DNA from: a virus
Taxonomy: Duplodnaviria; Caudoviricetes
Length of the DNA stretch: 64,000 nt
Direction: 5' to 3' (one strand)
IMG/VR virus record: IMGVR_UViG_3300013105_000003
Span: 1-64,000 of that record
Positions within the stretch are counted from its first letter, which is position 1. Every line of letters begins with the position of its first letter. A program made the translations under genes and the position numbers. Under the pieces are notes generated by a model. It was not told the DNA's origin. It saw only the letters and a list, made by a program, of their open reading frames with translations, and made no database searches. Shown piece by piece: positions 12,322 through 46,748 of the stretch.

Positions 12322-12329
12322 ACGATAAT
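12322..12329 (+). promoter_or_regulatory. phage late-promoter motif ACGATAAT
   Basis: intergenic copy of the recurrent octamer. Confidence 0.7.
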
Positions 12330-14476: not shown

Positions 14477-14680
14477 TTGACCTTTACAGGCAAGTTCGCA
14501 GAAGTATATGATGCCTTGGATGACACCAACAAGGAATTACTAATGGAGCACCTTACTCAAGGAACTTCTGCCAACGTACTTTCACGAATGTTTGAGTCTA
14601 TCAACATTAAGCTGTCCCCTACCACAATCAAGGAGCAGCGTACTAGACTTCTTGATTCGTTAGAAAGTGATGAATCTTGA
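14477..14680 (+). CDS. hypothetical protein, possible HTH
   Basis: 67-aa ORF overlapping the start of the phosphoesterase. Confidence 0.55.
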   Translation: MTFTGKFAEVYDALDDTNKELLMEHLTQGTSANVLSRMFESINIKLSPTTIKEQRTRLLDSLESDES

Positions 14681-15888
14681 AGATTAGTAAGCAAGAACAG
14701 CAAACTCTACTTGAGAAGTTTAAGGCTCGTCCAGCAGCTCCTAGTATCCCAGGTAAGGGAACCAATACAGAGTTTACTAAGAAGTTAGAGTGTAGCTCCT
14801 CTAAGGTAGAAGCTACAATAAATGACCTTCAAGGTACTATCACTGATGGTACCGCCTTTGATTTCCTTAAAGCAGAAGGTTTAGATCCTAAAGAATGGGC
14901 TATAAAATCTTTCAGAAAATCACAGTGGGATGGATTTGCTGGCCCTATGGAGAGTGTAAGATTCAGTTTTGAGAGATTAGCTGATTCTGCCGAAGGTCTA
15001 GACTTAGATGTTGAGGGCCTACTAGAAGATATAAAGAAACACAAATCACCTAAGAAGATTCTCCTAGAAGGCTCATATGGTTTTATTGTAGGTATAGGTG
15101 ACCTACAAGTTGGTAAGATAGACGGGGACGGTGACGCTGGGTGTGTCTACCGAGCTATTGAGTGTATAGATGCAGCTGCAGTTAAGTTAGAGATGTATAG
15201 AAGAGCTGGTTACGATATTGGGCATGTACATGTTGCTTGGCTAGGGGATCACATAGAAGGGTTTGTTTCTCAAGGTGGTGCTAACGCATGGAGAACGCAG
15301 CTTCCTCTTAACGATCAAATTCGTATTATACGCAGAATTATGCTTTATGCATTAAAGAAGTTTGCTCCGCTTGCTACTAGAGTATCCATGATTGCAGTTC
15401 CAGGCAATCATGGAGAAGCTGTTAGGTTTGGAAATGGTATTACTAGGTATGATGATTCTCATGATACTGAGTCTCTAATAGCAATTTCTGACGCCGTAGA
15501 GTTAAACCCAGAAGCCTTTGGACACGTAGAGTTCTATGTTCCAGATACAGATGAGTTAATAGTAGAGCTAGAGGTTGCAGGCACTCATATTGCACACCAC
15601 CACGGACATAAGTGGCGTCCTAACCAGCATTTCAAGTGGTGGGAAGGACAGGCATTCAATAGAGATTCTAAGATGCACTATGCAGACCTGTTGTTGAGTG
15701 GACACACCCACCATGAGCATATTGAAAGTAATGGAAATAGGCTATTTATCAGTGTTCCTGCCCTTGAGTCAGAGAGTACTTGGTTTAGACACAACACAGG
15801 AATCGGTGGAGCGCCTGGTATCCTGACAGCTCTAACTAAGAATGGACAGGTACATAGTGTAGATTTTCTTAGAGGTACCAAGCTGTGA
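14677..15888 (+). CDS. calcineurin-like metallophosphoesterase (Mre11/SbcD-like)
   Basis: GDLQ, LGDHIEG, PGNHGE, HHHGH, SGHTHH metal motifs. Confidence 0.8.
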   Translation: MKISKQEQQTLLEKFKARPAAPSIPGKGTNTEFTKKLECSSSKVEATINDLQGTITDGTAFDFLKAEGLDPKEWAIKSFRKSQWDGFAGPMESVRFSFERLADSAEGLDLDVEGLLEDIKKHKSPKKILLEGSYGFIVGIGDLQVGKIDGDGDAGCVYRAIECIDAAAVKLEMYRRAGYDIGHVHVAWLGDHIEGFVSQGGANAWRTQLPLNDQIRIIRRIMLYALKKFAPLATRVSMIAVPGNHGEAVRFGNGITRYDDSHDTESLIAISDAVELNPEAFGHVEFYVPDTDELIVELEVAGTHIAHHHGHKWRPNQHFKWWEGQAFNRDSKMHYADLLLSGHTHHEHIESNGNRLFISVPALESESTWFRHNTGIGGAPGILTALTKNGQVHSVDFLRGTKL

Positions 15889-15937
15889 AAGTTATTGTTT
15901 GTAAAGTATCTTATGGACGTTAAGTAAAAGTTTAATA

Positions 15938-16023
15938 GGTGTACCTTAGGATGGTACTAGTGGTTGAGACCACAAAATATGGAAGTCTCACCGCCAACCG
16001 GAGCAGGTTTATCACTTGCCCAG
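15938..16023 (+). ncRNA. candidate structured non-coding RNA
   Basis: GTACC/GGTAC hairpin; GTGG-TTGAGA-CCAC hairpin whose loop complements downstream TCTCA; GCAGGT/ACTTGC hairpin; followed by a terminator. Confidence 0.4.
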
Positions 16024-16067
16024 TGTCCCCGCAACTTGCTTCGCTACCAAGTTGCGGGGACATTTTT
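16024..16067 (+). terminator. intrinsic terminator
   Basis: TGTCCCCGCAACTT...AAGTTGCGGGGACA followed by TTTTT. Confidence 0.85.
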
Positions 16068-16095
16068 ATGTTTTTCGTAAGTATTCCCACAAACA

Positions 16096-16103
16096 ACGAT
16101 AAT
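16096..16103 (+). promoter_or_regulatory. phage late-promoter motif ACGATAAT
   Basis: after terminator, upstream of protease. Confidence 0.75.
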
Positions 16104-16143
16104 AATAGTGTACGAATTTTAGTACTCTGAAGGGGTTTAGTAT

Positions 16144-17397
16144 ATGGGTGATTCCAATGTTGTTCTCTCGTCCAAAGGTGACGACGACAACGAGTATGTA
16201 GAGCTTGCCCGCACCCCTTCCGGCAAGGTGTATCGTAAGCAGATTCTTAAGATGAATGAGTCCTTTCTTCATCCAGCCAATAAGGCACAGAGAATTACTA
16301 TCGACCAGAACTTTGCAGAGCAGCTAGTAAATAACTTTAAAGCCGGTTACTGTGATACTGTCCAGTTTCCAAAAGTTAACGAAAAGAACCAGCACGTAGA
16401 AGACCCAGACTTCAACATGGGTGAGGTTATTGACCTTACTTATGACGACAAGGGAGTATGGGCTTACATTGATGTGCGGAAGAATGCTGATGACATTGGC
16501 AAGACCTATCTAGGTGCTAGTGCCATGATGAGTTTGGATTACGAAGACCACTCTACAGGTAATCACGTAGGTCCAACTCTATTACACGTAGCTGCTACTA
16601 ATAGACCTTATTTGACTAATCTTGCTCCTTACGAGTCAGTTTCTTTAAGTAACAGCCAAAACAACGATAATTTTATTGTAATGCTCTCAGAAGATGAGAA
16701 TACCTCCGGCTCAGAGTCGGACGAAGACGAAAGCAGGAGTTCAATGGACCGCCTAGAAGAACTACTAAAGGAGCTTTCCGACGTTTATGACATTGACGTT
16801 GAGGCTCTTCAGAAGGCTCAGAAGGAAGCTGCAGAAGCTAAGACTGATGAGGAAGCTGCAAAGGCTGACAAGAAGGTTGAAGAGGCTGAGGCTAAGGTAG
16901 AGGATACCAAGGAAAAGACTGAAGAGGCTAAGGCTGAGGTTGAAGAGAAGGTAGCAGAGCCAGTCGCTGCTAGTGCTGACTCAGACCTTGATGAGCTAAT
17001 TGCTAAGCTTTCTGATGTTCTAAAGTCTGCAGACCCTAACCTAGTATCTCTCTCTGATTCAGAGGTAAGTGTTGCTGACCTAGCCAATGGTGTCATTGAG
17101 CTATCTAACAACTACAAGACTATGAGTAACACAGTAGGCACCCTTAACCGTAAGAGTGCAGAGGCTGATGTTGACGAAGCAGTACGGGCAGGAAAGATTC
17201 TACCCGCACAGCGTGACGCATATGTTGAACTAAAGCTCTCAAACGAGTCCATGTATGAGTCCCTAATTCCAGAGACTGCAATTGTTTCACTCTCCAATGA
17301 GAAGGGTGTTGCAATTCATGATATGCCCAACAACGGAGCAACTGTAGATAGTGATGCTGCTGAAATTGCACGCATCGCCGCAAAGCTAAAAAAGTAA
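16144..17397 (+). CDS. Mu gpI-like prohead protease fused to scaffold
   Basis: GPTLLHVAATNRPYL motif, acidic coiled-coil, AVRAGKILPAQ; upstream of decoration/capsid genes. Confidence 0.85.
   Translation: MGDSNVVLSSKGDDDNEYVELARTPSGKVYRKQILKMNESFLHPANKAQRITIDQNFAEQLVNNFKAGYCDTVQFPKVNEKNQHVEDPDFNMGEVIDLTYDDKGVWAYIDVRKNADDIGKTYLGASAMMSLDYEDHSTGNHVGPTLLHVAATNRPYLTNLAPYESVSLSNSQNNDNFIVMLSEDENTSGSESDEDESRSSMDRLEELLKELSDVYDIDVEALQKAQKEAAEAKTDEEAAKADKKVEEAEAKVEDTKEKTEEAKAEVEEKVAEPVAASADSDLDELIAKLSDVLKSADPNLVSLSDSEVSVADLANGVIELSNNYKTMSNTVGTLNRKSAEADVDEAVRAGKILPAQRDAYVELKLSNESMYESLIPETAIVSLSNEKGVAIHDMPNNGATVDSDAAEIARIAAKLKK
16664..16671 (+). promoter_or_regulatory. internal late-promoter motif for nested scaffold
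   Basis: ACGATAAT in AT-rich patch 80 nt before in-frame AGGAG-ATG. Confidence 0.6.
16744..17397 (+). CDS. nested in-frame scaffolding protein (Mu gpZ-like)
   Basis: AGGAG SD before in-frame ATG 16744 (MDRLEELLKELS). Confidence 0.65.
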   Translation: MDRLEELLKELSDVYDIDVEALQKAQKEAAEAKTDEEAAKADKKVEEAEAKVEDTKEKTEEAKAEVEEKVAEPVAASADSDLDELIAKLSDVLKSADPNLVSLSDSEVSVADLANGVIELSNNYKTMSNTVGTLNRKSAEADVDEAVRAGKILPAQRDAYVELKLSNESMYESLIPETAIVSLSNEKGVAIHDMPNNGATVDSDAAEIARIAAKLKK

Positions 17398-18943: not shown

Positions 18944-18982
18944 AAGTAAATGCCCCTCTTAGGTAGAGGGGCATTTACTTTT
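18944..18982 (+). terminator. intrinsic terminator
   Basis: AAGTAAATGCCCCTCT/AGAGGGGCATTTACTT followed by TT. Confidence 0.88.
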
Positions 18983-18985
18983 GGT

Positions 18986-18993
18986 ACGATAAT
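18986..18993 (+). promoter_or_regulatory. phage late-promoter motif ACGATAAT
   Basis: immediately after capsid terminator. Confidence 0.75.
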
Positions 18994-19632: not shown

Positions 19633-20154
19633 ATGGCAGACCCTGTAGGATTTCAACTACCTTCTCCAGCTGACTTTGATACTTTTGTTGAGCTAGATGA
19701 CAGTGCTGATGTTTCAGACTGGACCTCTGCCCAAAAGGTGTGGCTTATAAGACAAGCTGCGGACTTGATGCTCCTTGCTACCGGAATGGATGATGGAGCA
19801 CCAGTAGCAGTCTCTGACACCCCCTTAGGCAGAATGGTATTCAATGGGATACTTGATATGGCATTTTACTTAGGTAGTTCGTTTGATGACAGGTCTGCTC
19901 AGCAGTACTCTCCTTTCGCTTCAGAGCGTATTGGTGAGTACAGTTATTCTAAGTTCATTACTTCGATTACTAATAAGCAAGGCACTGGTGTAACTTTATT
20001 TGATAACGCTGTCACTTATTACTTGTCTAAGCAGTCAGGTAATCAGGATAACGGACAGTTCGCACATTCCTCAGAAGATGTATTCGCTACTAATTTCAAA
20101 GACTATGAGAGAGAAGTAAGAAGTGACTCTCATTGGTATGGTGGGTGGAGATGA
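19633..20154 (+). CDS. head-to-tail adaptor
   Basis: position; SERIGEYSYS motif typical of gp15/gp6-like adaptors. Confidence 0.75.
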   Translation: MADPVGFQLPSPADFDTFVELDDSADVSDWTSAQKVWLIRQAADLMLLATGMDDGAPVAVSDTPLGRMVFNGILDMAFYLGSSFDDRSAQQYSPFASERIGEYSYSKFITSITNKQGTGVTLFDNAVTYYLSKQSGNQDNGQFAHSSEDVFATNFKDYEREVRSDSHWYGGWR

Positions 20155-45478: not shown

Positions 45479-45978
45479 GTATTCTATTGCGAACTGTTCA
45501 TGGATCACATTTATACAACTTAAACCATGATAACTCAGACACAGATTACTATGAGGTTTACTCTGGAAAGGGTAGAGCCAAACAGACTATAGTAGGAGAT
45601 ATTGATACACTACGTATAAGCTATGACTCTTTCATGTTCCAGTGTCGTAAAGGTGTGCCTCAGGCACTAGAGGCTTTGTACTCACCTGTTAAAGAGATAG
45701 ATGAAATACCTTTTATCACAGATTCATTTAATCCTATAAGTACAGAAGTTTATAAGACTTATGTACGGACTATTAGGAATTTCTGGAAAGAGGGTAGCCT
45801 GAAGAGAAAACGTCATGCTGTCAGGCTTTGTATCAATCTATCATGTATAATGAGGTATGGAAGGTTTAACCCCTCTCTAACTCAGATAGAGAAAATATTC
45901 GTAGTAGCCTATGGAGACGTGGACGAAGAGGAATGTCCAGCTCTTAACATGTTAGGATTCCCACTTTATATATGGTAG
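45475..45978 (+). CDS. Pol-beta superfamily nucleotidyltransferase (RlaP/YcgL-like)
   Basis: GSHLYNL..NSDTDY motif and KGVPQALEAL. Confidence 0.75.
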   Translation: MSILLRTVHGSHLYNLNHDNSDTDYYEVYSGKGRAKQTIVGDIDTLRISYDSFMFQCRKGVPQALEALYSPVKEIDEIPFITDSFNPISTEVYKTYVRTIRNFWKEGSLKRKRHAVRLCINLSCIMRYGRFNPSLTQIEKIFVVAYGDVDEEECPALNMLGFPLYIW

Positions 45979-46748
45979 ATAAAAAGAAGCCAAAAGTATC
46001 TATTGCTCCTAACGAAGATGAGAGGTGGAGTTTAGCCAAGGCAGGTAATACTGAGGCGCAAAACTCACTTGTTATAGAGCATGAGCCACTAGTGTATCAA
46101 GTTGTAGGAACAATGATCTTCAAGTTCCCTGACCACATTGAGGCTGATGACTTACACTCTTACGGCATGTTAGGGCTGTGGAAGGCTGTGAAGACCTATG
46201 ACCCTTCCAAGGCATCCTTCCGCACCCATGCAGCTTTTAGGATTAGGAATGCGATCTATGATGAGTTGCGCATCCAGGACTGGGCACCTGTAACAGTTCG
46301 TCAGAAGGCCAAGGAACTAAATAAGCTAAGAGAAGAATTCGTTAAAACTAACCGAAGACCTCCTACAGACGAAGAGCTAGGGGAGCTAGTAGGTAAGGAC
46401 GAAGACTGGGTACGCACTTTCAAACAACAGCTTGAAGCAACAGAGCACCGCCCGATGGAAGAACTAGAGAACACGTATGGTAGTATAGAAGCAGTACCAG
46501 ATTTCTCTACCTCTAAGAATGTATCAGAGTCCGGTGCTATGGCTTTAATCCTGCAGCAGTCCTTTGTGAGTTGGTTAGATGAACTACCCAACTCTCTCAA
46601 GTGTTTGTGGATAGTGATATACTACTGTGGTAAGTCTAAAAAAGAAGCAATGGTTATACTAGGCTTACGAACATACGAAATATCAGAACAGAATAAAAGA
46701 CTCATCAATGAGTTCAGGAAATTTTACGAGCATTTACAGTTAAACTAA
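45972..46748 (+). CDS. RNA polymerase sigma factor, FliA/WhiG (sigma28) family
   Basis: DDLHSYGMLGLWKAVKTYDP, FRTHAAFRIRNAIYDELRIQDWAP..VR, RPPTDEEL. Confidence 0.9.
   Translation: MVDKKKPKVSIAPNEDERWSLAKAGNTEAQNSLVIEHEPLVYQVVGTMIFKFPDHIEADDLHSYGMLGLWKAVKTYDPSKASFRTHAAFRIRNAIYDELRIQDWAPVTVRQKAKELNKLREEFVKTNRRPPTDEELGELVGKDEDWVRTFKQQLEATEHRPMEELENTYGSIEAVPDFSTSKNVSESGAMALILQQSFVSWLDELPNSLKCLWIVIYYCGKSKKEAMVILGLRTYEISEQNKRLINEFRKFYEHLQLN

Follow-up and report, generated by a model that had tools for sequence, protein, structure and literature searches.

A conserved structured RNA element between the exonuclease and protease genes in a narrow clade of uncultivated phages

Introduction

Between two genes of an uncultivated phage lies a gap of 255 nt, and the question is what kind of element this gap holds. 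An earlier note had proposed an undescribed structured RNA with its own terminator, located 5' of the protease gene, and had described a pseudoknot whose layout recalls the pistol ribozyme. Little is known about structured RNAs in lytic phages, and a function has been assigned to very few of them. The DNA analysed here, referred to as the window, comprises the first 64 kb of an IMG/VR phage record of 125,231 bp, which has direct terminal repeats and a G+C content of 44.8%.

Genes around the gap

The gap (15889-16143) is flanked by two ORFs on the plus strand, 14677-15888 and 16144-17397. The first encodes an Mre11/SbcD-like exonuclease of the metallophosphoesterase type (phrog_284 exonuclease, E 1.8e-81; Metallophos) and is the last gene of the operon that bears the RNA element in its 3' region. 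The downstream gene encodes a Mu-I-like head maturation protease/scaffold (PF10123, phrog_328), and 3' of it lie a gene of 138 aa and an E-type major capsid gene. Exonuclease homologues precede the protease gene in all relatives examined. The closest cultured relatives of the capsid and exonuclease proteins belong to phages of Microbacterium, Gordonia and Streptomyces. Since these nearest relatives are actinobacterial phages, the host of the window phage may be actinobacterial too.

Two minor features of the region were also recorded. An ORF of 67 aa (14477-14680), located 5' of the exonuclease gene, has a weak, sub-threshold match to MgtE_N (E 7e-4), and counterparts of 62-70 aa are found in the same position in the related contigs L003, L005, L011 and L012-L015. 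A cluster of three tRNA genes (His-GTG, Arg-TCT and Gly-TCC) was identified by both ARAGORN and Rfam at 678-907, and at the site of the element ARAGORN found neither a tRNA nor a tmRNA.

Predicted fold of the window copy

Every feature that the earlier note had listed in 15938-16067 is present in the sequence where it had been placed. The GTACC/GGTAC hairpin is found at 15941-15957, GTGG-TTGAGA-CCAC at 15960-15973, TCTCA at 15986-15990 and GCAGGT/ACTTGC at 16003-16019. These are followed by a 15-bp GC-rich hairpin, 16024-16062, and then by TTTTTATGTTTTT.

The stretch 15938-16066 (129 nt) has a minimum free energy of -58.8 kcal/mol (z = -7.2), and none of 200 shuffled sequences folds as well. 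When the terminator is left out, the remaining 86 nt (15938-16023) have a z-score of -2.7, and again none of 200 shuffles is as good.

The predicted fold consists of four helices on the plus strand. P1 (15941-15957) has the stem GUACC/GGUAC and the loop UUAGGAU. P2 (15960-15994) is a long bulged hairpin, in which the outer GUGG/CCGC part pairs 15960-63 with 15991-94 and the inner part, (U)GAGAC/GUCUC(A), pairs 15965-70 with 15985-90 around a loop at 15971-15984. The junction J2/3, CAAC (15995-15999), leads to P3 (16000-16021), a nearly invariant hairpin with one conserved G-U pair, formed by GG-A-GCAGGU, the loop UUAUC and ACUUGC-CC. The terminator hairpin P4 has its 5' arm at 16024-38 and its 3' arm at 16048-62; the arms enclose the 9-nt loop CUUCGCUAC (16039-47), and the U-tract UUUUUAUGUUUUU follows at 16063-16075. 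A terminator scan did not report this large hairpin because its limit for the loop was 8 nt.

Phages that carry or lack the element

Protease homologues from the Logan and ENA assemblies were used to reach related contigs. Four related contigs from uncultivated phages have the same element directly 5' of the protease gene: L003, L019, L004 and L010, with proteases 77%, 71%, 63% and 61% identical to that of the window, respectively. Together with the window they make up a comparison set of five copies from one narrow clade, and each copy sits directly 5' of the protease promoter. In L005, L011 and L012-L015, where the protease identity is 53-55%, model R1 found no element and there is no terminator at the exonuclease-protease junction. 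In these relatives the junction is either a short promoter-bearing gap or is occupied by inserted protein genes.

The gap and a 2-kb stretch gave no BLAST match against 50,697 phage records, and no close DNA relative was found in the phage, IMG/VR, JGI metagenome and GTDB collections. Pattern scans for the conserved motifs in viral contigs, metagenome contigs and GTDB genomes (with 63 hits in the latter) returned only chance matches in coding DNA, as checked by reading the hits or by model R1. According to this model, the element has no second copy in its own 125-kb genome, where it is single-copy, and no copy in two IMG/VR relatives. Scans of IMG/VR with the motif patterns and with R1 gave no further copy of the element, and searches for further contigs with shorter protease fragments returned nothing useful.

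In comparison with L003, using 40-nt windows, the nucleotide identity climbs to 78% from 15920 onward and stays at 78-98% across 15920-16020, against 35-60% in the 3' end of the exonuclease gene and the rest of the gap.

Conserved helices and compensatory changes

Folded singly, the five copies give the same helices P1-P4. The stem of P1, 4-6 bp long, varies by copy (GUACC/GGUAC, CACC/GGUG, GGCC/GGCC, AUUACC/GGUAAU), and the loop core U(A/G)GGAU does not change in any of the five. In three of the copies an extra hairpin of unrelated sequence separates P2 from P1. In P2, the outer UGG/CCG part is invariant. The inner helix is formed by GAGAC/GUCUC in the window, by GAGGC/GUCUC in L003 and by GAUUC/GAGUC in L004, L010 and L019; two positions are changed on both sides, and 96% of the cells are paired. 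P3 has the form GG-n-GCAGGU/ACUUGC-CC, and five of its six pairs never vary. As the P3 pairs and the outer part of P2 are invariant, covariation neither supports nor opposes these helices.

P4 has a stem of 13-17 perfect base pairs in all five copies, with a different sequence in every phage. Its 9-nt loop, (A/C)UUCGCUAC, is invariant at eight positions out of nine. In the apical 10 bp all 50 cells hold standard pairs, and eight of the ten pairs are changed on both sides; slid controls are 30-53% paired. As a control we used the terminator that follows the capsid gene in these phages; neither its loop nor its stem is kept, only the promoter behind it. In the window this control terminator lies at 18950-18993 (AAATGCCCCTCT-TAGG-AGAGGGGCATTT), directly 5' of a copy of the promoter motif described below, and it is not conserved in L003 and L004.

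MAFFT alignments put P1 and P2 wrongly where the extra hairpin is present, and model R1, which has the same basis, is no better. A second model, R2, was therefore built from the three long copies (L004, L010 and L019) only. A search with R2 finds the window at an E-value of about 2e-15 and L003 at 1e-16, both outside its training set. R2 also aligns all five copies correctly from P2 onward, in an alignment (A11) in which the CA(A) of J2/3 is conserved and unpaired. In A11, standard pairs make up 92.6% of the 163 pair cells, and changes on both sides are seen in 15 of 33 pairs; none of 500 shuffles reaches any of these measures, and slid controls are 36-48% paired. P1 is off register in A11, so the figure of 60% paired for this stem understates the helix seen in the single folds. 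Structural conservation, on which the earlier note had made its proposal depend, is thus present in five copies and recovered by a model that detects the window independently.

Three of the four helices are supported by compensatory changes among the compared sequences. P1 and P4 have clearly changed several times within this set, while the changes in the inner part of P2 may represent one or two events only. No consistent tertiary or loop-loop pairing was seen by eye among the five sequences.

A plain hairpin favoured over the pseudoknot

The complementarity between the TTGAGA loop and TCTCA, which the earlier note had read as a pseudoknot, is real. However, in all five homologues the two segments pair with each other as the strands of a single long bulged hairpin, with compensatory changes. 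This hairpin is P2, found independently in the single-sequence folds of the five copies, and it is the same as the alternative long stem that the note had mentioned. The changes in its inner helix, from A-U to U-A at the fourth pair and from G-C to U-G at the third, fit a plain hairpin. Further, a pseudoknot in L004, L010 and L019 would need some of the same bases for its other stem. The comparison of the copies thus favours the extended hairpin.

In three relatives the small GTGG/CCAC hairpin is reduced to three or four pairs, including a G-U wobble. GUGG has two potential partners, CCAC (or UCAC) in the P2 loop and the invariant CCGC. As both partners are conserved, a conformational alternative is possible, in which pairing of GUGG with CCAC would take the place of that with CCGC.

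These results also bear on the idea of a self-cleaving ribozyme, either pistol-like or of a new class. The element is a compact multi-helix RNA with conserved unpaired bases, an H-type pseudoknot is sterically possible in the window sequence, and the hairpin, A-rich linker and complementary segment give it a superficial likeness to the pistol ribozyme. However, the Rfam models of the pistol and other ribozymes give no match in the window, L010 or L019 at E-values up to 10, the supposed pseudoknot partners form an ordinary long stem with compensatory changes, and both the pistol core and the cleavage junction are missing. We consider a ribozyme extremely improbable, and the pistol-like layout was not upheld.

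Strand, coding potential and RNA class

The element could also be a small protein gene, or nothing more than an ordinary terminator preceded by hairpins that arose by chance. This genome has many terminators, and an ORF of 63 aa (15939-16130) overlaps the element in the window. This ORF is not conserved, its frame carrying stops in all four relatives. On both strands of the relatives nearly every frame contains several stops, and never fewer than one. The covariation and the independent detection by R2 also argue against chance hairpins, and we give this explanation almost no credence.

A function at the DNA level was considered as well, with the hairpin or cruciform and its fixed loop serving as a nick, origin or operator site. 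P4 is a GC-rich inverted repeat with an invariant 9-nt apex, a layout similar to that of hairpin origins. The strand asymmetry speaks for RNA instead: the G-U pairs of P2, of P3 and of P4 in L010 lie on the plus strand, conserved G-T pairs in terms of DNA being found on that strand only, and P1-P3 fold 2.5-12 kcal/mol better on the plus than on the minus strand in all five copies. In addition, the cumulative GC skew has no turn near 16 kb, and the differences in stem sequence between phages make a sequence-specific duplex operator unlikely. A DNA-level element is in our judgement highly improbable.

An Rfam scan, which the earlier note had proposed, gave no family match for the five copies at the gathering score, pistol included. 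Overall the Rfam scans returned merely sub-threshold hairpin matches and the three tRNAs, and none of the riboswitch aptamer classes in Rfam was matched.

Taken together, the five copies show the plus strand of 15938-16075 to encode a conserved non-coding RNA domain of about 130 nt, predicted to fold into the four consecutive helices P1-P4. The central proposal of the earlier note, an undescribed structured RNA with its own terminator 5' of the protease gene, is borne out because the element is conserved, shows covariation, contains no conserved ORF and matches no Rfam family. Like the entries of an IMG/VR phage catalogue with more than 10,000 candidate structured RNAs, of which 1241 have a predicted terminator (PMC10690425), it is a conserved intergenic phage RNA motif, the comparison with the catalogue being by kind alone. 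It therefore counts as a new family within a kind of RNA that has been described before.

Transcriptional context

Between the RNA element and the protease gene lies the motif ACGATAAT (16096-16103, plus strand), which is likely the promoter of the protease gene and dependent on a phage sigma factor. In the 125-kb genome this motif occurs 17 times on the plus strand and once on the minus strand. The copies are located mostly 30-45 nt 5' of start codons, often right after terminators, and they span 7014-60889 of the window and extend beyond it. A phage sigma factor gene is found at 45972-46748 (Sigma70_r2, E 5.5e-17). Together, the motif copies and the sigma factor look like a phage-specific promoter regulon. 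One copy (16664-16671) lies inside the protease/scaffold ORF.

The motif before the protease gene is kept in L003, L004, L005, L010, L011 and L019. This conserved position between P4 and the protease gene suggests that the protease gene has its own promoter and that the element belongs to the upstream unit, which starts at the ACGATAAT motifs at 12322 and 12960. The element lies 3' of the exonuclease gene on the same strand, and the predicted terminator of the operon is also that of the element. In the phage of L004, represented by the overlapping contig L086, the exonuclease stop codon lies 3 nt before P1, which implies that there the element is co-transcribed with the exonuclease gene.

In the window, a consensus scan found no sigma-70-type promoter 5' of P1, and no ACGATAAT motif occurs between the exonuclease gene and P1. 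The A/U-rich flank at 15920-15940 (plus strand) is kept in comparison with L003 and L004/L086 and is a candidate 5' leader, processing region or weak promoter. A stretch resembling TAAAA-n-TT-n-ATA-n is found in the 5' flank of L003, and in L086 it falls within the coding end of the exonuclease gene. Since about 20 A/T-rich bases 5' of P1 are kept in L003 and L086, a weak promoter of its own or a processing site is possible.

With its GC-rich hairpin and U-tract, P4 should stop transcription just before the protease promoter. The U-tract is good in the window, L010 and L019, weaker in L004 and poor in L003, so P4 may terminate inefficiently in some of the phages.

One candidate function for such an arrangement is a 3'-end module that acts in cis only. 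P4 would terminate the exonuclease operon and shield the protease promoter from read-through, and P1-P3 would protect the 3' end of the mRNA or govern its decay, as lambda sib or an RNase III/RNase J site does. The position at the end of the operon on the same strand, abutting the stop codon in L004/L086, and the hairpin with U-tract directly followed by a promoter agree with it, and it accounts for the position no less well than does the small-RNA reading discussed below. However, simple stabilisers and terminators need no fixed loops, so those of the element are left unexplained. The control terminator of the same phages conserves neither loop nor stem, and the more distant relatives manage without any terminator at the junction. 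We regard a purely cis-acting module as possible but on the unlikely side.

Alternatively, the element could be a conditional terminator, i.e. a riboswitch-like or factor-responsive attenuator in which P1-P3 sense a ligand, a protein or an RNA and determine whether transcription proceeds beyond P4 to the head genes. Such a mechanism would be expected to have a conserved structured domain immediately 5' of a terminator hairpin, as is the case here, and GUGG with its two conserved partners, CCAC and CCGC, could provide a switch. Against this, none of the known aptamer classes is matched, there is no evident conserved pairing of an antiterminator with the variable arms of P4, and the protease gene has its own conserved promoter after P4. 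A fixed P4 loop would also be unexpected in an expression platform. Such a conditional terminator appears quite improbable to us.

Proposed function and comparison with known systems

The two loops that remain fixed on fully diverged stems point to a specific molecular partner. The explanation that we favour, tentatively and at somewhat less than an even chance, is a stable small RNA derived from a 3'UTR that would act in trans through these loops late in infection. In this scheme the element would be transcribed together with the exonuclease gene, starting from the ACGATAAT promoters at 12322 and 12960, and the domain would then persist as a stable small RNA, either by 5' processing or through its own weak promoter. 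P1 and P4, with their covarying stems, would display the fixed loops U(A/G)GGAU(G) and AUUCGCUAC, which would be read in trans by a phage or host protein or by a complementary RNA. P4 would then serve both for termination and insulation of the operon and as a recognition hairpin.

The phage genome shows no enrichment of sites complementary to either loop, the counts being at or below chance. Two 8-mers, at 92941 and 111872, were considered as loop targets and rejected, being in the number expected by chance. Other copies of TTCGCTAC, at 20083 and 22324, lie in coding sequence without a hairpin and were likewise set aside.

A precedent for a small RNA of this type is known from the phage PAK_P3, in which abundant late ncRNAs are processed from 3'UTRs and have no transcription start of their own (PMC10914365). 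As for ncRNA1 and ncRNA2 of that phage (PMC10914365), the small RNA region follows a protein gene on the same strand, has no evident promoter and is kept in close relatives. There is, however, no sequence or Rfam relationship with the PAK_P3 ncRNAs, and the phage lineage and probably the host phylum are different. The element, in contrast to those RNAs, has covariation-supported helices and two invariant loops, and it is known here from sequence alone.

P4 is similar to intrinsic terminators in being a GC-rich hairpin with a U-tract in the window that ends an operon. It differs from them in that its 9-nt loop is fixed across diverged stems, about 85 nt of conserved structure precede it and the U-tract is poor in L003.

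The P1 loop, (A/G)GGAUG on a short stem, resembles a single GGA site of the CsrA type, as found in the sRNAs that titrate CsrA/RsmA (CsrB, RsmZ). Those sRNAs have many GGA hairpin sites, whereas the element has one fixed GGA loop, its other GGA motifs vary between copies and there is no Rfam match. Also, the nearest protein relatives are from actinobacterial phages, whose hosts are not known to have CsrA.

A further reading goes beyond the 3'UTR-derived small RNA. The element could represent a new functional class of RNA, gained by this phage clade as an RNA-only insertion ('moron') between the exonuclease and head genes, with fixed loops that contact a specific host or phage factor. If so, it could be a cofactor of assembly, act as a decoy or sponge that counters a defence protein or RNA-binding protein of the host, or resist the 5'-3' exoribonuclease of the host and in this way give rise to the small RNA. 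We hold this to be unlikely.

Being short and well defined, with three helices that have compensatory support, the element is a practical target for pull-down, probing and mutagenesis. Its practical value is limited for now, with phage and host uncultivated and five copies known.

The exonuclease-protease junction

In the contigs compared, the boundary between these two genes behaves like a hot spot for insertions: the window clade has the RNA element there, and relatives have protein genes. At this place L005 has an endonuclease VII gene and a gene of 116 aa (L005 1880-2901), L012-L015 have two genes of about 260 aa (L012 2337-3941), and L011 has tandem promoter motifs only (L011 3907-4000).

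In the L004 phage, the exonuclease encoded by L086 is 83% identical to that of the window, whereas the protease is only 63% identical. This difference suggests a mosaic boundary at or near the RNA element. Three separate assemblies (L086, L087 and L088), from five samples, contain the exonuclease gene of this phage on a contig of its own, each time 1313 nt long, and a fourth assembly has the same contig with 1263 nt. At its end, which falls within the RNA element, L086 overlaps the first part of the L004 contig (L004 1-55).

Finally, the public call of the protease gene in L010 (144-1520, 458 aa) begins inside the RNA element and spans P3 and P4. This call is an over-extended annotation artefact, and the start that is consistent with the homologues is the ATG near position 270.
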